Assembly (NCBI GenBank): GCA_000004695.1
Contig: CM000151.3
Location: 192,001 to 256,000, forward strand
DNA length: 64,000 bases
Direction: 5' to 3'
DNA from: Dictyostelium discoideum
Lineage: Eukaryota
Shown here: piece by piece, positions 8,127-64,000 of the stretch
Layout of the letters: every line of letters starts with the position of its first letter
How positions within the stretch are numbered: the stretch's first letter is position 1
Position numbers and translations under genes: made by a program
Notes under the pieces: generated by a model
Told to the model about the DNA's origin: nothing
Database searches by the model: none
Seen by the model: the letters and a program-made list of their open reading frames with translations, nothing else

Positions 8127-10858
<2,732 letters not shown>

Positions 10859-18442: not shown

Positions 18443-19283
18443 TATAATTAATTTATTTTTTATCTATAGAAAATCATTAAAAGATAATGAAGAATCTTTA
18501 AAAACCAATTTAGCATCAATTGAAAAATCATTAGGCGAAGCATTTTCAATTGAATTTGATTTTGAAGATATTATTACCAAATGTAATGATTCATGGGTAA
18601 CTAATAGTTGTGGAAGTATCTTTTATAAAGATGTTGTTGGTAATCTTGCTAAGAATATGGTAAAAGTTGGTGCAGACCCATTAATTAAAGAAGCATTTTT
18701 AGCAGCTGTCCCAAATAAGAAATTCGTTTTTATTTGTGCTGATGAAAAGTTGGAATCATATTGGAAATATCAATTTGTGAATGGTGATTGTCAAATTTTA
18801 TTCCGTCCAAAGATTTGCAACACCAATGATGTAAACACATTCAAATTGGAAACAATAATTCCAACCCAAGGTGTGTATACTTTAATGACCCGTTTGAATA
18901 TTAAAACAAATGAACAAAAAATGAAGGATAATTTATCCGCTGTTAAAAAAGCATTAAAATCATCATCGGATTGGTCAATTGATGAATCATCATTAGAAAC
19001 TGTTTATCCAAAAGTTGCCGACGACTTGAAGAATAGTTTTGGTCACATCTTTGCTGGTATTGTTGAAAAGGTAGCTGCTAATCTCGCAAAACGTTGTGCT
19101 GATGAAATGATTTTGGAAGCAGTCCAAGAAGCAACTACAAATCATACAATCGTTATTAAACATGATGCAAACTTGAATGGTTATTGGTCATGGTCATTTG
19201 AATCTGGTAATATCGTTATCACTTTCAAATCTGTAACTAATACTAACGATGTTCAAACATTTGATTTCATTAAATTATTATAA
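18375..19283 (+). CDS. Hypothetical protein of about 299 aa built from two internal repeats of about 120 aa; 2 exons (18375-18397, 18470-19283)
   Basis: Exon 1 encodes MPLALTSR and ends at ag|gtaaat. The acceptor is tatag at 18469. The two halves align with each other, for example ...FVNGDCQILFRPKICNTNDVNTFKLE versus ...FESGNIVITFKSVTNTNDVQTFDFIKL. The gene ends at TAA 19281-19283. Confidence 0.6.
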
Positions 19284-19412
19284 TCCAATAATTAATAAAT
19301 AAAAATAATAATCAATTAAATTAAATTAAATTTATAAATAAAAAAATAAAGTTATAAATAATATATTTATTTTATTTTTATTTTATTTTATTTTTTTTAT
19401 TTTATACTTTAA

Positions 19413-19670
19413 AATGATCATAAGTTATTTTTTCTCTTGTTTTAACTTTATATCTTTTAAAACAAGGTGTCATTTGTTTTCTCCATTTTAATTGATATAA
19501 TATTTTTAAATTTATTTCCCAATCTTCTGGTTGTTTAAACCAATAATCAACCCGGTCATCTTGTCTATTTGGAGATTGTTCTAAATAATATTTTTGAGAA
19601 TTTGGTGAATCTTTTGTTATATCAATATTACCAATTACTTGATATTGATTTTGTTGTTGATGATTATAGT

Positions 19671-19736
<66 letters not shown>

Positions 19737-19835
19737 CTTGTTTATAATAATTATCATTAAAACTATGAAAACTATTATCACCATTATTACTATTATTAAT
19801 TTTACAGATATTGTTACAAAATTCTGTTAAAACTG

Positions 19836-19914
<79 letters not shown>

Positions 19915-20054
19915 GTTATTATTTTTATTTTGATATATATGTTTTTATTATTTTTATTTTTATCTTTTTTTATTATGTTTATAGAATCAAGAAATTTATT
20001 TATTTTTGACCATGTATCGTTTTGATAATTATATTCCGGATATTTCATCTTCAT
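19413..20054 (-). CDS. Q/N-rich hypothetical protein with a conserved-looking C-terminal block; the reading frame through the (AAT)n tract is uncertain
   Basis: The minus-strand ORF reads ...NFCNNICKINNSNNGDNSFHSFNDNYYKQEQ(Q)22YYNHQQQNQYQVIGNIDITKDSPNSQKYYLEQSPNRQDDRVDYWFKQPEDWEINLKILYQLKWRKQMTPCFKRYKVKTREKITYDHFKV*. The N-terminal exon MKMKYPEYNYQNDTWSKINKFLDSINIIKKDKNK starts at 20054. Confidence 0.4.
19668..19733. repeat. (GTT)22 on the plus strand, equal to (CAA)n on the minus strand, encoding poly-Gln
   Basis: Seen directly. Confidence 0.85.
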
Positions 20055-21014
20055 TTTTTTTTTTTTTTTTTTTTAAACAAAAATTTATAAAATAAAAAAA
20101 ATAATTATTTATTGGGGGGTTTTTTTTTTTAAACAAATAAATAAATAAATAAGTAAATAAATAATTATTGCAACTATTATTATTATTATTATTTTTAAAA
20201 ATATTAATATTTTTAATAATGAAACATTAAAATATTATTAATATTTTTTTTTTAAAAGAAAAAAAAAAAAAAATAATAAAATAAAATAAGAAAAAAAAAA
20301 AAAAAATGTTTATTTATAAATAAAAAAAAGAAAAAAGAAAAAAAGAAAAAAAATTAAAATAAATAATATTTTTAATGTGTTAATTTTATTGATAATAATA
20401 ATAATAATTATTATTATTATTTATTTGAAATTAATTTGAACAAACAACAAGAACCACAATGGATAATTAAATAGTTGAATGATTTTGGTAATATAAAAAA
20501 AAAATAAAACAAGTTAAAAAATAATAATAATAAAATTAAATTAAATTATAAAATTAATAATATATTAATTAAAATGGTATTAAAAAAGAAAAAAGAAAAA
20601 AGAAAAAAATCAATATACGTGTACTTAAAAAAAAATAAAAAAAAAAAAAAAAATAAAAAAAAAAAAAAAACACTAACCAACTCTATTATAATAACCCCAC
20701 ACTTTTATTTAAAATAAAAAATAATAATAATAATAATAAAAATAATAATAAATATCATTTAACCTACAATGGTTAATTTTTATAAAAATAATAATAAAAC
20801 AATTATACTATATGGTATGATCTAAAAAGAATAAAGAGAGAGAAAGAAAATTGTGTCAGAGAGTGGGGTAAAATAAAAAAAAAAAAAAAAAAAAAAAAAA
20901 CAAAACAAATACAAAAGGAAAAGGAAAAAAATCATTTTATTATTATGATAATAATCAAAATTTAAATTTAGAAATATGATAAAACATATTTATCCTAATA
21001 CATTAACACACACC

Positions 21015-51855: not shown

Positions 51856-52298
51856 CTATTTAAAAAAATTAATAATAAAAAAAAATAAAATAAAATAAAA
51901 AAAAAAAAAATAATAATAAAAAAATAAAATACAATGAAATAAAAACAAATATTTATTTATTTCAACATATAATATTTATTTATTTATTTTTACATTTTCT
52001 TTTTTTTTTTTTTTTACTTTATTTTTTTTTTTTTTTGTAATTATGATACCATTTCTTTAAAATTAAAAAATTATATCCCATTTACAATATTTTTAGAATA
52101 TTAAAAGACACACAAAATGACGATCATCACAAAATATTTTTTTTTTTTTTTTATTCCAAAACATAATTTTAAATTTCTTGTTTAATAAAGAAAAATTAGA
52201 ATTTATTATTATAATATTTTATATAATTATTTTATGGGGAAGAAAGAAATAAAAATTCGAAATCTTAATAGTATCTTCAGAAAATTATAAAAATTCAA

Positions 52299-52384
52299 TG
52301 AACCGATCACAATGATCATGAATTGATTTTTTTATTTTTTTTTATTTTTTTTATTTTTTTTTTTTTGAAAAAGCTAAAAATATC
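52299..52384. promoter_or_regulatory. Conserved upstream cassette of paralog A: GAACCGATCACAATGATCA ... GAAAAAGCTAAAAATATC(T)n
   Basis: The two blocks lie about 215 and 130 bp upstream of ATG 52515. The same blocks sit at the same spacing upstream of paralogs B and C. Confidence 0.5.
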
Positions 52385-52470
52385 TTTTTTTTTTTTTTTT
52401 TAAGTAAATAATAAATTTATTTATTTTTTTTATTATGATGGTCAAAAAAAAAAAAAAAAAACAATTGACA

Positions 52471-52514: not shown

Positions 52515-55500
52515 ATGAAAATAAAATTTATAAATTATTTATTATTATTTTTTATTATTTTTTTAAATTATAATGGATTTGTAAAATCAGATTGTTATCA
52601 AGAACTCGATTTGGTTTTATCTAATTCTTGTAGAAATGGCCCATCAAAATTAGTTATTCATGAAAGTATTTATTCTTTTGAAAGTATTGAATTGACTCCA
52701 TTTGTTCAACCAAAATTACTAAATTATTATTCTTGGGATTTACAAGATGGAATTAATTATTTCATAAGTTACAGATACAAGAATTGTAGTAATATAATTT
52801 CTAAACCATTTGCTTCAAAAGGAATGTATTATAAACTTTTAGCGGAACCATTATGTTTAAATACATATATTCCAGTTAGAGTTTATAATTGGGGTGCAGG
52901 TGGTATAGAATATAATTTTTATAGTGTTCCATCAACGATTTGGGTTAATTCACAAAATGGTTTATGTAGTTTCCAATCACCAATTTCTCCACAAAGTTAC
53001 ACAAAAGGTGTATTAAATGATGGTGCACTCAAATTCGTTGGACCAACATGTGGTTTTAAAAATGGTACGATTACAATTGATTTAACCAAAGGTTATTCAA
53101 ATTATCATTTATTCCTTCAATCAGATTACCTTTTTGATAATGAAATTCAACCATCTTCAGAAGGTTTTTACAATGGATTGGAATCTGAAAATTACTCCCT
53201 TTTCGTTGATTCTGAACAGTGTGCTACTGAAAGAATTGAAATTTACATGAAGGATGTTTTCGCTCCATTGGAAATTGATTTTGAGAATGTTCCAGACTTA
53301 TTCCATAATTCAACAATTTCACTATCATTATCAAGTGGTAATAATGGAATTTTAAATAACACAAATATAAATGCTTTTGTAATACAATCAGAACGTTTAC
53401 TTACAGATTGGAACCATGTCCAAACCCAAATTACTTCAAATACTTATTATGGGTACGCTTATAATAAAGACTTTTCAACGGAAGCAGGTCAGACAAAATG
53501 TGTATATTCTGAAACACTTTTATTTGATAATTATTCCCCAAATTTCAATTTCACAATTTCAAAAAGTGAAAGTTGTTTAGAAAATGTTTCAATTACATTC
53601 TATCCATTACCAAATCAAAATATTAAAGTTTATGATTATAGCTCAGAGTCTGGTATTCCATTCTCAATGAAGGATAACGTTTTATCAGTTGAAAATAATT
53701 TAAATTTATGGATTTTTGATACCAATCAAAATTATGGTATTGTTCATTCAACTGTTTTTGATATACCATCTTATAAAATTATTGAAACTTCAAATGGAAT
53801 TGGATGTTGGAAAACTTATAATATTACAATTGTAAATTATGAAAATTATAAAAATCTAAGAATTCATTTTTATAATGAAAATAGTGAATTTAATTTTTAT
53901 CCAGTAGAAGGTGTATTTATAAATGTACCTGCATTGTATTACTATGTTACTTATAATGCTGGTGATTGTGAAACTGAATCATACTTTGTAATTGATAAAC
54001 TTGATAGAAATACTCCAATGGATAATGTAGTTTTGGAATTCAACACATTGGAAATTGGTAATTGTACACATGAAACTTCATTCATGGTGACTGTGAAATC
54101 AGTATTCGGTAGCTATTCAAAAACTATGCAAACATTCTATGATAAAGAATTTACTATATTCCTTCCAAATTGTTCATGTCAGATTAATGGCATTTACGTA
54201 GCACCCCGCTTAATTGATGGTGATTCACTTATTTATGAATTATTAACAGATCCAAATTGTAATTCTACTGATACTTTAATTAGATTTACTTCTCCTTCCC
54301 AAGATTATTCAATATCATCTGTATATCAAAATGGTGTTCAATTGCAATATTATAACAATTTAAATGGTTATTATATTAGTTCAGGTGAAAATAATATTAC
54401 AGTTAATTATGAAGGTGATCAATATTGTTATAGAACTGAAACAATAACTATTCAATCAGTTTATGAAGTACCATTGGTCCAAATTACACCAGTTTCAGAT
54501 TGTAGAAATCCAAATGGAAAAATTGAAATTTCAAATTTCCAAATTTTCTATAACTTAGAGCTTGTATTTAATTCAAATAGTAAACCAATTAATCAAGGCT
54601 TTATTGAGAATCTTGCATCCGGTACATATACAATTAATTATTACAGCAATCAAACATGTATAAATTCTATCACTGTTTATGTACCATCTTCAGAAAATGT
54701 AGCAGAAATTACAACATCAGTAATTAGCAATCCAACTTGTGATAATGGTCCTTTCTCTGATGGTATGATCAGAGTAGCTCTTAAATATGAAGGTAATCAA
54801 ATTAATAATTTCACAATCCAAAATCAAGATGCAGAATTTACCTACCTTAATGATGGTGTTTACCCAATAGCAGGTGTTGGTGTAAATAGTTTAACAATTT
54901 CATATCTTTCTTGTATATGGAAAAGAGATATTACAACAGTACTCAATAAGCCAAGCTTTACTCTGGAAAAAGTTTTTAATGATACTTGTGATCTACAAAG
55001 TGTTTATAAATTAGTATCAAGTAATCCAAATATTGAAATCGATTATATTGATTCATCAAATGGCTTTTCTTACCTAAATAACTATTATCTAGTATTTCAA
55101 AATAGTGGCGATTTTGGTTATTATGTGGCTTGGAATTCACGTTGCTATGAATATTACACTCAACAAATTATAATGGATAATTATGATAGGGATAGTAATG
55201 TTAAATATATAGATTATGAAATTGTAAAACCAGATAATTGTAATTCATTAAAAATCGATTTAATCATTACAAATATGAACAAATTCATTAGTTTAACCAT
55301 TGAAAATAAACTTCCAACACCAATTAATTCGACCCATTCAATTTTCAAAAATTTACCACCATCAAAAAGTTATGACATTTTATACACATTATTAAATGGT
55401 TGTGTCGCGTATCAAACTGTTGGTATAGATGAATTCAAATCTGGTTTTACTAAAGAAACAATAGATATCATTAAAACAAGTGATATTTGTTACTCTGGTA

Positions 55501-56096
55501 AAGCTTCAATACAATTATCAAATTTGGATTTTGATAATTATTATTATTATATTAAAAATTCAAATAGTTTAATGGGAGTTACTGATTCATACGATTCAAT
55601 TCAACCACAGCAAAGTGGTAATATTAATGGTACAATTTTACTTTCAAATTATAATCCTGGTAGTTATAAAATTTATCGTGGTTGTAAATCAATGGCAAAC
55701 TGTTATTTAGAAACAAATGTTGTTATTGAAAGTGAAGATCCAATAATTGAATCAATTTCAGTTACTGATTCATATGATAAATTAAATAATGGCACTGTTG
55801 AAATTAAATTGAATTATAATTCACCATATCCAATTAATTTTAAAATCATTGGTACTCAATTATCAAATCAAAATGGTAAATTTGGAAATTTAACACCAAA
55901 AACATACGAAGTTCAAGTTACATTAACTGATAGAATGTGTCCAGTCACTTTATCAAAATCATTTACAATTAATTTAAAAACATCACCACCAACACCATCA
56001 CCACAAGATCCATCTGATGAACTTTCAACATCCTCATTTGTTCAAGTAAATCTTTTATTCTTATCAATCTTAATTTTCACTATTTTTATTTTTTAA
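52515..56096 (+). CDS. Large secreted surface protein of about 1193 aa, Cys-patterned, N-glycosylation-rich, putatively GPI-anchored; family unassigned; paralog A
   Basis: The gene is a single exon. A signal peptide MKIKFINYLLLFFIIFLNYNGFVKS opens it. More than 60 NxS/T sequons are present. A Cys-NG-x-I module recurs, for example GPTCGFKNGTITIDLT, VSDCRNPNGKIEISNF, SNPTCDNGPFSDGMIRV and SDICYSGKASIQLSNL. The C-terminus SPPTPSPQDPSDELSTSS plus the hydrophobic tail FVQVNLLFLSILIFTIFIF looks like a GPI-attachment signal. Confidence 0.8.
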   Translation: MKIKFINYLLLFFIIFLNYNGFVKSDCYQELDLVLSNSCRNGPSKLVIHESIYSFESIELTPFVQPKLLNYYSWDLQDGINYFISYRYKNCSNIISKPFASKGMYYKLLAEPLCLNTYIPVRVYNWGAGGIEYNFYSVPSTIWVNSQNGLCSFQSPISPQSYTKGVLNDGALKFVGPTCGFKNGTITIDLTKGYSNYHLFLQSDYLFDNEIQPSSEGFYNGLESENYSLFVDSEQCATERIEIYMKDVFAPLEIDFENVPDLFHNSTISLSLSSGNNGILNNTNINAFVIQSERLLTDWNHVQTQITSNTYYGYAYNKDFSTEAGQTKCVYSETLLFDNYSPNFNFTISKSESCLENVSITFYPLPNQNIKVYDYSSESGIPFSMKDNVLSVENNLNLWIFDTNQNYGIVHSTVFDIPSYKIIETSNGIGCWKTYNITIVNYENYKNLRIHFYNENSEFNFYPVEGVFINVPALYYYVTYNAGDCETESYFVIDKLDRNTPMDNVVLEFNTLEIGNCTHETSFMVTVKSVFGSYSKTMQTFYDKEFTIFLPNCSCQINGIYVAPRLIDGDSLIYELLTDPNCNSTDTLIRFTSPSQDYSISSVYQNGVQLQYYNNLNGYYISSGENNITVNYEGDQYCYRTETITIQSVYEVPLVQITPVSDCRNPNGKIEISNFQIFYNLELVFNSNSKPINQGFIENLASGTYTINYYSNQTCINSITVYVPSSENVAEITTSVISNPTCDNGPFSDGMIRVALKYEGNQINNFTIQNQDAEFTYLNDGVYPIAGVGVNSLTISYLSCIWKRDITTVLNKPSFTLEKVFNDTCDLQSVYKLVSSNPNIEIDYIDSSNGFSYLNNYYLVFQNSGDFGYYVAWNSRCYEYYTQQIIMDNYDRDSNVKYIDYEIVKPDNCNSLKIDLIITNMNKFISLTIENKLPTPINSTHSIFKNLPPSKSYDILYTLLNGCVAYQTVGIDEFKSGFTKETIDIIKTSDICYSGKASIQLSNLDFDNYYYYIKNSNSLMGVTDSYDSIQPQQSGNINGTILLSNYNPGSYKIYRGCKSMANCYLETNVVIESEDPIIESISVTDSYDKLNNGTVEIKLNYNSPYPINFKIIGTQLSNQNGKFGNLTPKTYEVQVTLTDRMCPVTLSKSFTINLKTSPPTPSPQDPSDELSTSSFVQVNLLFLSILIFTIFIF

Positions 56097-56199
56097 ACTT
56101 AGAAAAAATATAAAATACAAATAAAAAATAATGATTCAAGTGTTTGCAAGGAGTTTTCTTATTTTTTTTCTTTGTAGTTTATTCTGTGATTATGTATGG

Positions 56200-56233
<34 letters not shown>

Positions 56234-56362
56234 AGGATGATTTCCTTTTTTTTTTTTTTTTTTTTTGTAAATTGGTATTTTATTTATAAAATAGAATTTT
56301 TTATTATGATAATCAATTAAATTATTTTATGGGCAAGAAAAACAAATTAAAAAAAATTCACT

Positions 56363-56425
56363 GAACCGATCACAATGATCACAACCGTTTTTTTTTTTTT
56401 TTTTTTTCGAAAAGCTAAAAATATC
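56363..56425. promoter_or_regulatory. Conserved upstream cassette of paralog B
   Basis: CTGAACCGATCACAATGATCA ... CGAAAAGCTAAAAATATC(T)n, with the same spacing as in paralog A. Confidence 0.5.
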
Positions 56426-56589
56426 TTTTTTTTTTTTAATTTAATTTAATTTTATTTTATTTTATTTTATTTTATTTTTTTTTTTTTTTCAAACCAATCA
56501 AAAAAAAAAAAAAAAAAAAAAAAAACCTTAAAATAATTTTTTTTTTTTTTTTATAAAAAATTTTTAATAATAATATTAATAATAAAAAG

Positions 56590-59500
56590 GAAAATAAAAT
56601 TTATAAATTATTAATTATTATTTTTTATTATTTTTTTAAATAAAAATAATTTTGTAAAATCAGATTGTGATCAAGAACTCGATTTGGTATTATATAATTC
56701 TTGTGGAAATAGCCCATCAAAATTAGTTATTCATGAAAATATTTATTCTTTTGAAAGTATTGAATTGACTCCATTTGTTCAACCAAAATTACTAAATTAT
56801 TATTCTTGGGATTTACAAGATGGAATTAATTATTTCATAAGTTACAGATACAAGAATTGTAGTAATATAATTTCTAAACCATTTGCTTCAAAAGGAATGT
56901 ATTATAAACTTTTAGCGGAACCATTATGTTTAAATACATATACTCCAATTATAGTTTATAATTGGGCTGCAGATGCTTCACCCTATAGTTTTTATAGTGT
57001 TCCATCAACAATTTGGGTTTATTCACAAAATGGTAATTGTAATTTCCAATCACCAATTTCTCCACAAAGCTACACAAAAGGTGTATTAAATGATGGTGCA
57101 CTCAAATTCGTTGGACCAACATGTGGTTTTAAAAATGGTACGATTACAATTGATTTAACCAAAGGTTATTCAAATTATCATTTATTCCTTCAATCAGATT
57201 ACCTTTTTGATAATGAAATTCAACCATCTTCAGAAGGTTTTTACAATGGATTGGAATCTGAAAATTACTTCCTTTTCGTTGATTCTGAACAGTGTGCTAC
57301 TGAAAGAATTAAAATTTACTTGAAAGATGTTTTCGCTCCATTGGAAATTGATTTTGAGAATGTTCCAGATTTATTCCATAATTCAACAATTTCATTATCA
57401 TTATCAAGTGGTAATAATGGAATTTTAAATAACACAAATTCAAATGCATTTGTTGGAAATACACAGCGTTTACTTGCAGATTGGAACCATGCACAAACCC
57501 CAATTATATCAAGAACTGTTTATGGGTATACTTATAATAAAGACTTTTCAACAGAGGTTGGCCAGTTACAATGTAATTTTTTCGAAACACTTTCATTTGA
57601 TAATTATTCCCCAAATTTCAATTTCACAATTTCAAAAAGTGAAAGTTGTTTAGAAAATGTTTCAATTACATTCTATCCATTACCAAATCAAAATATTAAA
57701 GTTTATGATTATAGCTCAGAGTCTGGTATTCCATTCTCAATGAAGGATAACGTTTTATCAGTTAATAATAATTTAAATTTATGGATTTTTGATACCAATC
57801 AAGGGTATGGTATTGTTCATTCAACTGTTTTTGATATACCATCTTACAAAATTATCGAAACTTCAAATGGAATTGGATGTTGGAAAACTTATAATATTAC
57901 TATTGTAAATTATGAAAATTATAAAAATCTAAGAATTCATTCATATAATGAAAATAGTGAATTTAATTTTTATCCAGTAGAAGGTGTATTTATAAATGTA
58001 CCTGCATTGTATTACTATGTTACTTATAATGCTGGTGATTGTGAAACTGAATCATTCTTTGTAATCGATAAACTTGATATAAATACTCCAATGGATGGTG
58101 TGACTGTTGAATACACTACATTGAAAGTTGGTAATTGTACACATGAAACTTCATTCATGGTGACTGTGAAATCAGTATTCGGTAGCTATTCAAAAACTAT
58201 GCAAACATTCTATGATAAAGAATTTACTATATTCCTTCCAAATTGTTCATGTCAGATTAATGGCATTTACGAAGCACCCGGCTTAATTGATGGTGATTCA
58301 CTTATTTATGAACTTTTAACAGATCCAAATTGTAATTCCACTGGCACTTTAATTAGATTTACTTCTCCTTCCCAAGATTATTCAATATCATCTGTATATC
58401 AAAATGGTGTTCAATTGCAATATTATAACAATTTAAATGGTTATTATATTAGTTCAGGTGAAAATAATATTACAGTTAATTATGAAGGTGATCAATATTG
58501 TTATAGAACTGAAACAATAACTATTCAATCAGTTTATGAAGTACCATTGGTCCAAATTACACCAGTTTCAGATTGTAGAAATCCAAATGGAAAAATTGAA
58601 ATTTCAAATTTCCAAATTTTCTATAACTTAGAGCTTGTATTTAATTCAAATAGTAAACCAATTAATCAAGGCTTTATTGAGAATCTTGCATCCGGTACAT
58701 ATACAATTAATTATTACAGCAATCAAACATGTATAAATTCTATCACTGTTTATGTACCATCTTCAGAAAATGTAGCAGAAATTACAACATCAGTAATTAG
58801 CAATCCAACTTGTGATAATGGTCCTTTCTCTGATGGTATGATCAGAGTAGCTCTTAAATATGAAGGTAATCAAATTAATAATTTCACAATCCAAAATCAA
58901 GATGCAGAATTTACCTACCTTAATGATGGTGTTTACCCAATAGCAGGTGTTGGTGTAAATAGTTTAACAATTTCATATCTTTCTTGTATATGGAAAAGAG
59001 ATATTACAACAGTACTCAATAAGCCAAGCTTTACTCTTGAAAAAGTTTTTAATGATACTTGTTCACTACCAAATGTTTATAAATTAGTATCAAGTAATCC
59101 AAATATTGAAATCGATTATATTGATTCACCAAATAACTTTTTTTATCAAAATAACTATTATCTAGTATTTCAAAATGTTGGTAATTCTAGTTATCAAGTG
59201 GGCTGGAATTCACGTTGTGAAGAACATTACTATCAACAAATAATAATGGATAATTATGATAAAAATAGTAATGTTAAATATATAGATTATGAAATTGTAA
59301 AATCAGATAATTGTAACTCATTAAAAATTGATTTAATCATTACAAATATGAACAAATTCGTTAGTTTAAATATTGAAAATAAACTTCCAACACCAATTAA
59401 TTCGACCCATTCAATTTTCAAAAATTTACCACCATCAAAAAGTTATGACATTTTATACACATTACTAAATGGTTGTGCAGGGTATCAAACTGTAGGTGAA

Positions 59501-60181
59501 GATGAACTCAAATCTGGTTTTACTAAAGAAACAATGGATATCATAAAAATAAATGATCTTTGTTACTCTGGTAAAGCTTCAATACAATTATCAAATTTGG
59601 ATTTTGATAATTATTATTATTATATTAAAAATTCAAATAGTTTAATGGGAGTTTCTGATTCATTTGACCCAATTCAACCACAACAAATTAGTAGTAATGG
59701 TACTATTTTACTTTCAAATTATAATCCTGGTAGTTATAAAATTTATCGTGGTTGTAAGTCAATGGCAAACTGTTATTTAGAAACAAATGTTGTTATTGAA
59801 AGTGAAGATCCAATAATTGAATCAATTTCAGTTACTGATTCATATGATAAATTAAATAATGGTACTGTTGAAATTAAATTAAATTATAATTCATCAAATC
59901 CAATTAATTTTAAAATCATTGGTACTCAATTATCAAATCAAAATGGTAAATTTGGAAATTTAACACCAAAAACATACGAAGTTCAAGTTACATTAACTGA
60001 TAGAATGTGTCCAATCACTCTATCAAAATCATTTACAATTAATTTAAAAACATCACCAACACCATCACCAACCCCATCACCACAAGATCCATCTGATGAA
60101 CTTTCAACATCATCATTTGTTCAAGTTAATCTATTATTCTTATCAATCTTAATTTTCACTATTTTTATTTTTTTAATTTAA
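56590..60181 (+). CDS. Paralog B of the surface-protein family; a 1165-aa body ORF about 93-95% identical to A, but the start codon is lost and the signal peptide has a stop, so it may be a very recent pseudogene
   Basis: At the position homologous to ATG of A, B reads AGG (aaaaaggaaaataaaattt versus aaaaatgaaaataaaattt). Codon 9, TTA in A, is TAA in B (aattattaattatta). Downstream of that the frame is open to 60181, with the same C-terminal GPI-like tail. Confidence 0.6.
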
Positions 60182-60372: not shown

Positions 60373-60590
60373 TAATTGTTCGTTTTATTTGTTTATATAT
60401 TTACATGTTTATTTATTAATTTTTTTTTTTTTTGTGTAAATTACAAAGTATCCCAAGAAATCAAAGTAAAAAAATCAAATCATTGAAACCCTATTCGTTA
60501 TGAAATGATTGCAATCTCCTTTTTTTTTTAAAATAAAAAAAAAAATTAAAAAAATTAAAAAAAATTCAAATAACCAATCTGATTGATTTC

Positions 60591-60648
60591 TTTACCGATC
60601 CCCCAAAAAATTAATTTTTTTTTTAATTTTTCAAAAACTAAAAATATC
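60591..60648. promoter_or_regulatory. Conserved upstream cassette of paralog C
   Basis: TTACCGATCCCCCAAAAAA ... CAAAAACTAAAAATATC(T)n lies about 115-170 bp upstream of ATG 60762. Confidence 0.45.
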
Positions 60649-60761
60649 TTTTTTTTTTATTTTTAATTTTTTTTTTTTTTTTTTATTTTAACCTTTTTTT
60701 TTTTTTTTTTTTTTTTTATTTTAACAAAAAAAAATAATATTAAATCTAAAACAATAAGGAA

Positions 60762-63700
60762 ATGAAATTTATAAAATATTTATTAATTTTATTTTTAATA
60801 TTAAAAATTAATTATTTTGTAGAATCAGGAGTAGATTGTCAAAAAAATACAGAGTATTTCGTTGAAAATTCATGTGGCAAAAATCCATCAAAATTAAACA
60901 TCAACACTGATATTTACTATTTTGAAAGTATTGGAATAACACCATATTCCCCACCTGTTTATAATGAATCTACAACTAATTACTTTTGGTATTTGAAGGA
61001 TGGTATTGAATATACATTTAGTTATAGATACAAAGGTTGTCAAAATATTAAATCACATTCAATTGTTTCACAAGGAATGTATTACCAACTTTTATCACAA
61101 CCATTGTGTCCAAATACCTATTTCAATTATACAATTTATAATTCAGGAGAGTTTGGTGGAAATACAAATTATTACTCTACCCCACAAAATATTATAAGTT
61201 CAAATTATAATGGTAGTTGTACTATTAATATTTTAATTACACCACTTAGTAATTCCAAAGGTGCATTCCAAAGCAGTGCTGCTAAATACACCTATCCAAC
61301 TTGTGGTTTTAATAATGGTACGATTTCAGTTGATTTAACAAAAGGTTATTCAAATTGTCACTTATTCAGCCAATTTGACACGAGTTTTCTATATGAAATT
61401 GAACCATCATCGCCATGTTTTTACAGTGGGTTGGAGTCAAATTATTATTACCTTTTCGTTGATTCTAAAGAATGTGCTACTGAAAGATTATCAATTCAAT
61501 TATTCAATGTTTTCACTCCATTGGAAATTACTTTTGAAAATGTTCCAGATTATAATCAAAATTCAATAGTATCATTATCATTATCAAGTGGTGACAATGG
61601 AATTTTAAATAAAACTAATTCATTTGCAACTGTGGGTGGCACTGGACCTGATCCATTAAGTACTTGGAGCCATAAAGAAACTAAAATTACTTCAACCACA
61701 CAATTTGGTTACTTTTATAATAAAGACTTTTCAACAGATCCATTAAAAGTTATATGTTCTTTTAATGATGGTTTTGAACCGCAAAAATTTAATCCAAATT
61801 TTAATTTCACAGTTACAAAAAGTGATACTTGTTTAGAAAATGTAACTATTACATTTTATCCATTACCAAGTCAAACATTTGTTGTTCATGATTATATTTT
61901 AGGAAATATATTACCATTGACAAATAATGTTCTATCGGTTCAATATAATAAATTTTTACATATTTCAGAGATTTCAAGTAATTCAGAAAGATATTATTCA
62001 ACAGCTTTTTATGCTCCTATTTATAGAGTTGTTGAAACTTCAAATGGAATTGGTTGTTGGAAAACCTATAATATTACAATTGGTGAATATCAAATTTATT
62101 CAAATCTTACAATGAAAGTATATGATGGAGATGAATATGAATATATTTTTTATCCAATTGAAGGAGTTTTCGTTAATGTACCTGCAAATTATTTTTATAT
62201 CCATTATAAAGTTAAAGATTGTGAAGTTGAATCAATAATTATGATTGATAAATATGAAGAAATTACTCCAATGGATGATGTAAAAATGGATATCAGTATA
62301 TATGAACTTGGTAATTGTACACATGAAACTTCAATTTTAGTAAATATCGATACAGTTTTTGGTAACTTTTCTAAAGTTTATTCATCATTTTCAAATGGTT
62401 ATTTCTCTTTTTACCTTCCAAATTGTTCCTGTAATATTGGTTTCTACTATTCTATTCCACCATTAATCGATAGTGAAACATTTTCTTATGGTTTTATCAG
62501 TGATCTAGATTGTAATTCCACTGGTACTGTTATTCAATTATTAGGTTCAAATGGTAATACTATTCAAGAAGTTTATTCAAATGGTATTAAATTAATAGTA
62601 AATAATGACGTTGATACTGATTTTGCATATAATATTGGGCCTGGTGAAAATAATGTTACAATTAAATATTCAAATACAAAAGGAACTTGTTACAAATCTC
62701 AAATGATTAACATACAATCACCTTATGAAGTACCATTAGTTGAAGTCACACCAGTTATAGATTGTGATAGTTCTGATGGTAAAATTTCAATTTCAAATTA
62801 TATGAACTTCTATTCATTGGATATTATTATTGATTCATCCACTATACCAATTAATTCAGGTTTAGTTAGTAATCTTCCAACTGGTACTTACACAATTGTT
62901 TATGGAAACAGTGGATCTTGTGCAAATTCTATCGATGTTTATGTACCATCTTCAGAACAGTATGTAGAAATTACAACATCTGTAATTTCCCATCCAACTT
63001 GTGGTGAACAATCATTGAATGGTGATGGTAAAGTCAATGTAACTTTAAAGGTTTTAGGAATTAAAAAAAATACATTCTATATTCAAAATCAAAATCAAAT
63101 ATCATCTCTAACATTCTCAGATGGTGGTGTTTATATTGCTGCTGCTCCAGGTTTAAATACTTTATCAATATCCTATGGTGGTTGTATTTGGAATAGAGAT
63201 GTTAATACAACAATTTCCAAACCAACATTCTCATTTGAAAAGATTTACAATGACACTTGTTTATCATCAGTATATTATAAATTAATAAATAATAATACAA
63301 ATATAGCAATTAATTCCATCACTTCACCTTATACCTTATATAGTTACCAAAATGAATACTACACTCAAATGGCCACAAATTTAATCTATCCATACACTGT
63401 CACATGGAATACCTATTGCACAGAAACATTTTACCAAGAATTTACTTTTGACACTCCTTTTAATTATTATTCAAATTATATCCAATATGAAATTGTAAAA
63501 GCTGATAATTGTAATTCATTCAAAATTGATATCATCATTAAAAATATGAATACTTTTCAAAAGGTAACCCTTTCAAGTAAATATCCAACACCAATTAATT
63601 CGACTCATGCAATTTTTAAAAATTTACCACCATCTATTTCTTATGATATTTCATTCACATTATTTGATGGTTGCTCTGGTACTGAAATGGTTGGTTATCA

Positions 63701-64000
63701 ACAACTTTCAAATGGTAATACTAAAGAGACAATCGATATCATCAAGGTGAACGACATTTGTAACTCTGGTAAAGGTTCTATCCAATTATCAAATATGGAT
63801 ACCTCCAATCATTATTACTATGTTAAAACATTTTCAGATTATTACGTTTACACAAGTTACCCAATTCAACCAACTACTAATGATAATGGTACAATTATTA
63901 GTCTACTTTCAAATTTACCAGTTGGTAGTTACAATATAACTAGAAATTGTAAATCAATAACAAACTGTTATATAGAAACAAAGGTTGTTATTGAAAATAA
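60762..64000 (+). CDS. Paralog C of the surface-protein family, divergent (about 50% aa identity to A); partial, running off the window end
   Basis: Translation from ATG 60762 stays open to 64000. It begins MKFIKYLLILFLILKINYFVESGVDCQKNTEYFVENSCGKNPSKLNINTDIYYFESIGITPY... and shows the same module order as A, for example PTCGFNNGTISVDLTKGYSNCHLF, SNGIGCWKTYNITI, ELGNCTHETS, LPNCSCNIG, VIDCDSSDGKISISNY and SHPTCGEQSLNGDGKVNV. Confidence 0.75.
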   Translation, partial: MKFIKYLLILFLILKINYFVESGVDCQKNTEYFVENSCGKNPSKLNINTDIYYFESIGITPYSPPVYNESTTNYFWYLKDGIEYTFSYRYKGCQNIKSHSIVSQGMYYQLLSQPLCPNTYFNYTIYNSGEFGGNTNYYSTPQNIISSNYNGSCTINILITPLSNSKGAFQSSAAKYTYPTCGFNNGTISVDLTKGYSNCHLFSQFDTSFLYEIEPSSPCFYSGLESNYYYLFVDSKECATERLSIQLFNVFTPLEITFENVPDYNQNSIVSLSLSSGDNGILNKTNSFATVGGTGPDPLSTWSHKETKITSTTQFGYFYNKDFSTDPLKVICSFNDGFEPQKFNPNFNFTVTKSDTCLENVTITFYPLPSQTFVVHDYILGNILPLTNNVLSVQYNKFLHISEISSNSERYYSTAFYAPIYRVVETSNGIGCWKTYNITIGEYQIYSNLTMKVYDGDEYEYIFYPIEGVFVNVPANYFYIHYKVKDCEVESIIMIDKYEEITPMDDVKMDISIYELGNCTHETSILVNIDTVFGNFSKVYSSFSNGYFSFYLPNCSCNIGFYYSIPPLIDSETFSYGFISDLDCNSTGTVIQLLGSNGNTIQEVYSNGIKLIVNNDVDTDFAYNIGPGENNVTIKYSNTKGTCYKSQMINIQSPYEVPLVEVTPVIDCDSSDGKISISNYMNFYSLDIIIDSSTIPINSGLVSNLPTGTYTIVYGNSGSCANSIDVYVPSSEQYVEITTSVISHPTCGEQSLNGDGKVNVTLKVLGIKKNTFYIQNQNQISSLTFSDGGVYIAAAPGLNTLSISYGGCIWNRDVNTTISKPTFSFEKIYNDTCLSSVYYKLINNNTNIAINSITSPYTLYSYQNEYYTQMATNLIYPYTVTWNTYCTETFYQEFTFDTPFNYYSNYIQYEIVKADNCNSFKIDIIIKNMNTFQKVTLSSKYPTPINSTHAIFKNLPPSISYDISFTLFDGCSGTEMVGYQQLSNGNTKETIDIIKVNDICNSGKGSIQLSNMDTSNHYYYVKTFSDYYVYTSYPIQPTTNDNGTIISLLSNLPVGSYNITRNCKSITNCYIETKVVIEN

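Follow-up and report, generated by a model that had tools for sequence, protein, structure and literature searches.

Conserved upstream elements point to one compact promoter shared by three tandem, starvation-induced paralogs of Dictyostelium discoideum

Three plus-strand tandem paralogs, here called A, B and C (DDB_G0271238, DDB_G0271236 and DDB_G0271234, the last also named dduB), lie in a 64,000-nucleotide stretch of Dictyostelium discoideum AX4 chromosome 2 (contig CM000151.3, positions 192,001 to 256,000; hereafter the window), and short blocks recur in the spacers upstream of each of them. The locus raises the question of whether these blocks form a common control module or are leftovers of gene duplication. 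An earlier note, made from the letters of the window, had proposed a common transcriptional control module, with developmental or sexual-cycle regulation as possibilities, and footprinting, specificity and co-expression all support the module and its developmental regulation. The three genes probably share one compact promoter, in which a TATA-like core (block 2) and an upstream activator region would together produce a common starvation profile. This shared promoter is previously undescribed, yet conventional. Intergenic DNA here is about 87% A+T, and G+C content stays at 12-30% per 2 kb across the window.

Every string that the note quotes was found at its given position or adjoining it. Block 2, quoted in the note as CTAAAAATATC followed by a T-run, is present as quoted 5′ of all three paralogs. 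The 64 kb hold three copies of CTAAAAATATC, one upstream of each paralog, where 0.11 would be expected, and none of 100 shuffles reached three. Its distance to the start codon, given as about 130 bp for each gene, is 127 bp in C, 144 bp in A and 176 bp in B, and the gap between the two blocks, given as 50-60 bp, is actually 30-52 bp. An exact 21-mer containing two or more G/C, CTAAAAATATCT10, is common to A and C, while unrelated AT-rich segment pairs share a mean length of 7.8 nt and reach 21 nt in 0.4% of cases.

Block 1, described as common to all three genes, is so in its ACCGATC part; the longer AACCGATC is found in A and B only. ACCGATC occurs three times in the window, all upstream of the paralogs, where 0.58 would be expected; two shuffles in 100 gave as many as three. 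At this site C reads TTACCGATC and has 7 nt in common with block 1 of A and B. Judged by position and flanks, the counterpart in C of AAAAATTCAATGAACCGATCAC in A is AAAAATTCAAATAACCAATCTG at 60560-60581; the C-type positional homolog of AAATTCAATGAACCGATCAC in A is AAATTCAAATAACCAATCTG, and that of AACCGATC in copy C is AAATTCAAATAACCAATC. The ACCGATC of C lies about 20 bp past this positional homolog, and its orthologs vary there, with ACCGATC, GCCGATC or GCCGGTT, the latter in another D. discoideum strain.

For comparison, orthologous clusters were taken from two D. cf. discoideum genomes, a second D. discoideum assembly, D. citrinum, D. dimigraforme and D. firmibasis, loci of a distant paralog clade were added, and family genes and their start codons were placed by tblastn. 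This sample holds 27 family genes in 300,873 bp, and the motif background is limited to these loci. An alignment of 17 main-clade promoters revealed two anchors. The first is AAAAATTCA(A/G)TGAAC, with a TTC-N3-GAA palindrome; block 1 of the note is its 3′ flank, from which the conserved AAATTC-N3-GAAC part had been cut off. The half-sites of the palindrome are kept while its centre varies (AAT, ACT, AGT, AAA, GGT), and TTC-N3-GAA is present in 11 of the 17 promoters; C-type copies are without it and read TTCAAATAA. The second anchor is AAAATATCT plus the T-run, AAAATATCT being the part shared by the ortholog forms CAAAAATA, TCAAAATA and TTGAATAT of block 2. In five genomes the two anchors stand 5′ of family genes with order, strand and spacing unchanged; the silent sites of these genes have diverged half-way to saturation.

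How much this conservation says depends on divergence, measured as synonymous substitutions per site (dS). A and B differ by a dS of 0.08, AX4 and the second D. discoideum assembly by 0.11-0.16, and AX4 and D. cf. discoideum by about 0.22; among the close relatives dS is only about 0.12-0.22. Because of these low values, sharing confined to A and B or to the D. discoideum complex says little, and the informative comparisons are those between A-type and C-type copies (A versus C, dS 0.63) and between D. discoideum and D. citrinum (A, dS 0.52), D. dimigraforme and D. firmibasis. The core AAAATATCTT of block 2 is kept in these three species at dS 0.5-0.6, and is also found 5′ of family genes in the two D. 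cf. discoideum genomes and in the distant paralog clade. Survival of a 10-mer in at least seven lineages at a dS of at least 0.5 is far beyond neutral expectation. A dS of 0.11-0.16 between two assemblies both labelled D. discoideum seemed high within one species.

The motifs are also specific to the family. On both strands of the 300,873 bp, all 11 matches of CTAAAAATATC, 15 of 16 matches of AAATATCTTTTTT and 21 of 28 matches of AAAATATCTT precede the start codon of a family gene by no more than 500 bp. The note had held that the motifs would be non-functional if they were similarly frequent by unrelated genes; in these loci, the ordered composite AATTC-N3-[GT]AA..AA[AT]ATCT has 14 of its 17 matches upstream of family genes, the remaining three being on the minus strand and not at any family promoter. 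In an unbiased ranking of k-mers, 350-bp family upstream regions were compared with 231 AT-rich background segments from the same loci. AAATATCTT came first (18/25 family regions versus 10/231), and AAAAATTCA, sixth, was the best 9-mer not overlapping the block 2 core (14/25 versus 10/231). Among main-clade promoters, AAATATCT followed by T5 was found in 12 of 19, against 1 of 243 AT-rich background segments; the corresponding figures are 11 of 19 against 6 for CGATC and 8 of 19 against 1 for AAATTC-N3-GAA. Canonical TATAAAWW was rejected as a discriminator, with 14/19 main-clade promoters against 182/243 background segments (75%). An unrelated D. citrinum gene carries GGGTGTGGTGCTTAAAATATCTTTTTTTTTT upstream (L003 19960-20010, minus strand), the sole non-family AAATATCTTTTTT in the 300 kb. 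This TATA-like variant with its T-run is thus not strictly private to the family.

Co-expression of the paralogs, which the note had named as a check, was read from the raw RNA sequencing counts of Rosengarten et al. 2015 (PMC4403905): A, B and C rise 10-100-fold by 1 h of starvation and are off in high cyclic AMP (cAMP). On filters, A had 1 and 6 reads at 0 h and 195 and 190 at 1 h, with maxima up to about 550 at 2-5 h and at most 26 from 14 h. B had 32 and 27 at 0 h, 222 and 142 at 1 h, and 384 and 617 at 2 h; C had 6 and 4, 29 and 14, and 20 and 213 at the same times, then background. In the suspension series, with 30 nM cAMP pulses at 2-6 h and 300 µM cAMP from 6 h, A went from 6-10 reads at 0 h to 708-813 at 1 h, 124-386 at 2 h, 647-973 at 5-6 h, 14-43 at 8 h and 1-9 later, and B and C behaved like A, with two humps and a collapse at 8 h. 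DDB_G0271240 (utp18), located 5′ of A, drops on starvation, and DDB_G0271232, 3′ of C, is flat with a late bump; since these neighbours do not follow the pattern, the co-induction is promoter-specific, not regional. Published tables also place A and C near zero in terminal cell types and vegetative cells.

The distant paralog DDB_G0271482 stays at 0-4 reads at all time points (PMC4403905) and may be expressed in another condition. The cassette is absent upstream of its ortholog in the second D. discoideum assembly, where ACCAC/CACAC-rich boxes are found instead. Throughout the DDB_G0271482-type clade, the upstream regions (L010, L007 and L008, each 9550-10000, and L009 14690-15135) have ACCAC/CACAC/GGGTG-rich boxes and no AAATTC/ATATCT cassette.

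From these data we propose a compact promoter of about 170-290 bp, which would have been inherited by all of the tandem immunoglobulin-like (Ig-like) surface-protein genes and kept by selection. A TATA element in sense-strand oligo-dT was reportedly recognised as a Dictyostelium core promoter by Kimmel and Firtel in 1983. According to Chang et al. 2012 (PMC3371697), sense-strand poly-T in Dictyostelium ends about 2 bp before the start site, and TATA boxes are embedded in poly-T and centred about 29 bp upstream of the start. Block 2 would be such a core, a TATA-like (C/A)TAAAAATATC that interrupts sense-strand poly-T, and the T-run of 8-17 nt behind it would end just before transcription begins. 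In A, B, C and their orthologs, block 2 is indeed embedded in sense-strand poly-T, and the layout is a T-rich tract, block 2, T8-T17 and then AAG or AAT, the interrupted poly-T followed by purines of the known core promoter. The orientation likewise agrees, with 19 of the 21 AAAATATCTT copies upstream of family genes in the sense direction and both antisense copies in distant D. dimigraforme paralogs. From the centre of block 2 to the end of the T-run behind it the distance is about 15-26 bp; with 2 bp added, it is about 18-26 bp in the D. discoideum-complex copies, which roughly fits a TATA box that precedes the start by 25-30 bp and is compatible with the rule of about 29 bp, not proof of it. 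Because of the T-run geometry and the 2-bp rule of PMC3371697, the start of A may be placed at about 52402-52405 (AAGTAAAT), which would give a 5′ untranslated region (UTR) of about 110 nt. For block 2, the role of a core-promoter element is more probable than that of a regulatory switch.

The activator region would lie 30-90 bp upstream of block 2 and comprise AAATTC-N3-GAAC and then CGATC/GATC cores. Jointly, these elements would account for the profile that the published data show: near-silence in growth, a 10-100-fold induction within 1 h of starvation, expression maintained or raised further by nanomolar cAMP pulses, and shut-off in continuous high cAMP or after aggregation. The most concrete candidate factor would be a GATA-type zinc-finger protein such as GtaC, and we regard GtaC or another GATA-family protein as a candidate regulator of A, B and C. 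The DNA-binding domain of GtaC prefers GATC on protein-binding microarrays, and its chromatin immunoprecipitation motif is GATA-like (Santhanam et al. 2015, PMC4506546). Like GtaC target promoters, block 1 contains clustered GATC (two cores 9 bp apart in A and B, one in C), block 2 has a GATA-like core on its antisense strand (AGATAT), and cAMP pulses keep expression up while continuous high cAMP ends it, a profile that fits a pulse-dependent factor. In the part of Supplementary Data 2 ("genes bound by GtaC") of PMC4506546 that was available, DDB_G0271238 stands in an unlabelled list after the 561 direct targets.

Several points weigh against this promoter model. As regards the factor, the 561 direct targets of GtaC (rank product below 0.005) in PMC4506546 do not include DDB_G0271238, and B and C do not appear in the available part of its Supplementary Data 2. 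Induction at 1 h precedes cAMP pulsing, so that a starvation factor other than GtaC must act first. GATC is not fixed in position: it drifts among promoters and is missing from DdR_C, cfY_A, dim_1 and fir_2/3. As regards block 2, we infer its core-promoter role from geometry alone. TAAAAATA differs from TATAAA(A/T)(A/T) by one mismatch (the canonical form for comparison being TATAAATA), and the invariant C of the conserved AAAATATCT makes it more specific than a usual site of the TATA-binding protein. AAATATCTTTTTT is reversed beside GATC in two distant D. dimigraforme paralogs, which is unexpected for a directional core element, and 5′ of a D. dimigraforme paralog the element is duplicated in an 82-bp unit repeated 2.6 times in tandem (86% matches; L004 14589-14800). 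The Fisher p-values of the motif comparisons, finally, overstate independence, as family members are phylogenetically related.

The D. dimigraforme loci merit description in their own right. The reversed block 2 cores adjoining GATC, at L009 about 9750-9780 and about 19240-19270, read GGGATCGAAAAAAGATATTTTT and GTGATCAAAAAAGATATTTTTT, a GATC-N6/7-GATA arrangement in which the GAT(C/A) cores are about one helical turn apart. The 82-bp unit holds GTGATCA, an A-run, AAAAATATCTTC and a T-run, and the repeat is a natural multimerisation of the module.

A serious rival to the core promoter is that block 2 is, possibly overlapping it, a factor site: AAAATATCT (AGATATTTT on the other strand) would then be read in either orientation and be the starvation-response element proper, rather than a TATA or core element. 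We consider block 2 as such a site and no core to be doubtful, and yet several observations speak for it. The AGATATTTT strand reads a GATA-like core; the 9-10-mer is exact, C included, across lineages at a dS of at least 0.5; the copies in dimD1 and dimD3 are reversed and GATC-adjacent; the element is duplicated together with GTGATCA in the 82-bp repeat; the variant AAAAATCT takes the place of the block 2 core in DdR_C and dim_1; and canonical TATAAAWW, occurring in three quarters of the AT-rich background, does not discriminate at all. AAAATATCT has the very sequence of the evening element of plants, to which Myb proteins of the CCA1 type bind, and AAAAATCT, in two orthologs, that of the CCA1-binding site. 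MybE, the sole characterised Dictyostelium SHAQKY Myb, was rejected as a binder of block 2: it binds AAC(A/T)GTT (PMC2845816), a consensus that matches neither block. Also against a factor site, block 2 always sits in sense-strand poly-T with a T-run, which is the described core-promoter layout, its occurrences upstream of family genes are nearly all sense-oriented, and TTAAAATATC with a T-run stands in a promoter-like context at the one unrelated D. citrinum gene. A more ambitious version, in which AAAATATCT and the T-run together with AAATTC-N3-GAAC/CGATC make up a dedicated, orientation-tolerant immediate-early starvation enhancer with a specific factor, is somewhat less probable still. That factor could be a GATA-family protein, given GATC/GATA cores about one helical turn apart, or a Myb- or STAT-like protein. 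As in the STAT gamma-activated site, a palindrome is found at one position in TTCAATGAA, TTCACTGAA, TTCAGTGAA, TTCAAAGAA and TTCGGTGAA; the C-type TTCAAATAA differs in having lost one half-site. Characterised Dictyostelium STAT sites are TTGA-type, and TTC-N3-GAA would be STAT-like in form only; a literature search for Dictyostelium STAT binding sites and cis-motif studies returned nothing usable.

Two further readings do without a transcriptional role for the blocks, and both are improbable. If transcription started upstream of block 1, the blocks would belong to a long 5′ UTR and would influence how stable the mRNA is or how it is translated. Further upstream poly-T tracts could mark a start under the rule of PMC3371697, and conservation does extend 3′ of block 2 into the presumed UTR. 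The reverse-orientation copies, on the other hand, speak against an element read in RNA, and searches with Rfam and ARAGORN gave no Rfam family and no tRNA in the window, the spacers included. Slightly more remote is the possibility that the shared blocks have no function and are duplication leftovers, or were homogenised by gene conversion between neighbouring promoters. A and B are recent duplicates, so ATTATTTTATGGG(G/C)AAGAAA and AACCGATCACAATGATCA could be shared without selection, the low dS inside the D. discoideum complex makes conservation there a weak argument, and the ACCGATC of C is a mere 7 nt that not all C orthologs have. Such leftovers would not be expected to behave as the anchors do, however: they persist in species with 46-58% protein identity, at dS 0.5-0.6, while the flanking DNA has turned over, and they keep order, strand and distance to the ATG. 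Moreover, the cassette goes together with co-induction, and the paralog that lacks it stays silent. The promoter shared by A, B and C, with block 2 as its core, is the reading that we prefer.

Table 1. Positions of the three genes and of the promoter segments in the window (AX4 chromosome 2 coordinate = window position + 192,000).
Feature	Position	Strand	Remarks
Copy A distal box ATTAGAATTTATTATTATAAT	52195..52215	+	B counterpart 56290-56310
Copy A G-rich box ATTATTTTATGGGGAAGAAA	52226..52245	+	block noted earlier at about -280; B counterpart 56321-56340
Copy A-only AAAAATTCGAAATCTTAATAGTATCTTC	52251..52278	+	deleted in copy B
Copy A AAAAATTCAATGAACCGATCACAATGATCA	52289..52318	+	palindrome TTCAATGAA (52294-52302), then block 1 GAACCGATCACAATGATCA (52300-52318)
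Copy A interrupted sense-strand poly-T, block 1 to block 2	52327..52366	+	fits poly-T interrupted by a TATA box (PMC3371697)
Copy A block 2 GAAAAAGCTAAAAATATC	52367..52384	+	TATA-like, conserved core AAAATATC; string quoted earlier, AAGCTAAAAATATC, at 52371-52384
Copy A T17 run 3′ of block 2	52385..52401	+	
Gene A (DDB_G0271238)	52515..56096	+	1193 amino acids, signal peptide, beta-sandwich chain, C-terminal hydrophobic tail
Copy B AAAAATTCACTGAACCGATCACAATGATCA	56352..56381	+	palindrome TTCACTGAA, then block 1 (56363-56381)
Copy B block 2 CGAAAAGCTAAAAATATC + T12	56408..56437	+	string quoted earlier at 56412-56425
Gene B (DDB_G0271236)	56588..60181 (about)	+	
Copy C AAAAATTCAAATAACCAATCTGATTGATTTCTTTACCGATCCCCC	60560..60604	+	positional homolog of the A/B element, then ACCGATC (60594-60600)
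Copy C block 2 AAACTAAAAATATC + T10	60635..60658	+	AAACTAAAAATATC itself 60635-60648
Gene C (DDB_G0271234, dduB)	60762..64000	+	continues beyond window end

Further upstream, A and B have additional segments in common. The note was right that both carry ATTATTTTATGGG(G/C)AAGAAA about 280 bp upstream. This A/B-only block is trivially explained by recent duplication; its G-rich core is found in D. citrinum as well, the TGGGG being kept in the A/B-type orthologs and in that species (TTTGGGGGAAC). The distal box has 15 of 21 columns invariant, the TAGAAT core included, in all eight A/B-type promoters, that of D. citrinum among them, and a long alignment of the A/B type adds TAGAATTTnTTATTATAAT and a G-rich TTATGGGG box as blocks also seen in D. 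citrinum. A second AAATTCGAAATCTT...ATATCTT pair is present in most A-type copies and absent from AX4_B and DdR_B. AAAAATTCGAAATCTTAATAGTATCTTC in copy A looks like such a second, degenerate copy of the AAATTC...ATATCTT pair; related sequence occurs in DdR_A, cfY_A, cfY_B and cfZ_A and in part in cit_1, and neither AX4_B nor DdR_B has it. Between block 2 and the ATG, a sense-strand A-run (A18-A27) flanked by C is located at 52441-52461 and 56497-56526. It lies in the presumed 5′ UTR of A, B and most A/B-type orthologs, with its position conserved and its length not.

The protein encoded by A in the window is 100% identical to DDB_G0271238 of D. discoideum AX4, which published tables place at chr2:244515-248096, with DDB_G0271234/dduB at 252762-256367. 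A literature search found no main text mentioning DDB_G0271238, and a search on dduB and dduA gave nothing relevant. A signal-like hydrophobic stretch is present at the N-terminus of A, B and C, and a hydrophobic C-terminal tail in A and B, both of which end inside the window. The AlphaFold model of A is all-beta, with many sandwich domains in a chain (mean pLDDT 70), and its structure matches in PDB are generic Ig-like arrays; a Pfam search of protein A gave no match. Calling the three genes surface-protein paralogs is reasonable. The coding sequence of C had been described as about 50% identical to the others, in agreement with a protein identity of 52% between A and C. Homologs of A were found only in group-4 Dictyostelium species in a protein search. 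The ratio of non-synonymous to synonymous substitution (dN/dS) is 0.32-0.64 in every family pair, which indicates fast evolution, and fast-evolving surface proteins that come on at starvation onset could be recognition or adhesion molecules.

Copy B of AX4 has AGG where the start codon is expected and an in-frame TAA at codon 9 (56588-56614). Both the second D. discoideum assembly (L006 5688) and D. cf. discoideum (L001 10001) have an intact ortholog of it, and copy B is transcribed all the same, with a profile like that of A. An older protein model, P0021, restores B by means of an ATG near 56133 and an intron that skips the promoter cassette. Either AX4 copy B is a pseudogene that is still expressed, or the reference sequence is in error here. 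Decayed family copies were also observed elsewhere, namely a C-terminal remnant just 5′ of the single D. citrinum gene (L003 9141-9494) and a D. firmibasis gene without a start codon (L005 about 19263-20924).

The comparison shows that, given several Dictyostelium genomes, footprinting works even in intergenic DNA of about 87% A+T. The read counts of A, B and C climb from almost nothing into the hundreds in the first hour of starvation, ahead of most well-studied aggregation genes, and their promoter is short, conserved in blocks in group-4 Dictyostelium and available in three natural variants next to each other. It is thus a convenient substrate for finding the factors of the first starvation response and of the shut-off by high cAMP. 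How the transition from growth to development is triggered transcriptionally in Dictyostelium is still poorly understood, and the enhancer reading, if true, would tie this trigger to a defined cis element. Apart from such uses, this is an ordinary shared promoter of modest general interest, and a practical entry point to the immediate-early starvation response.

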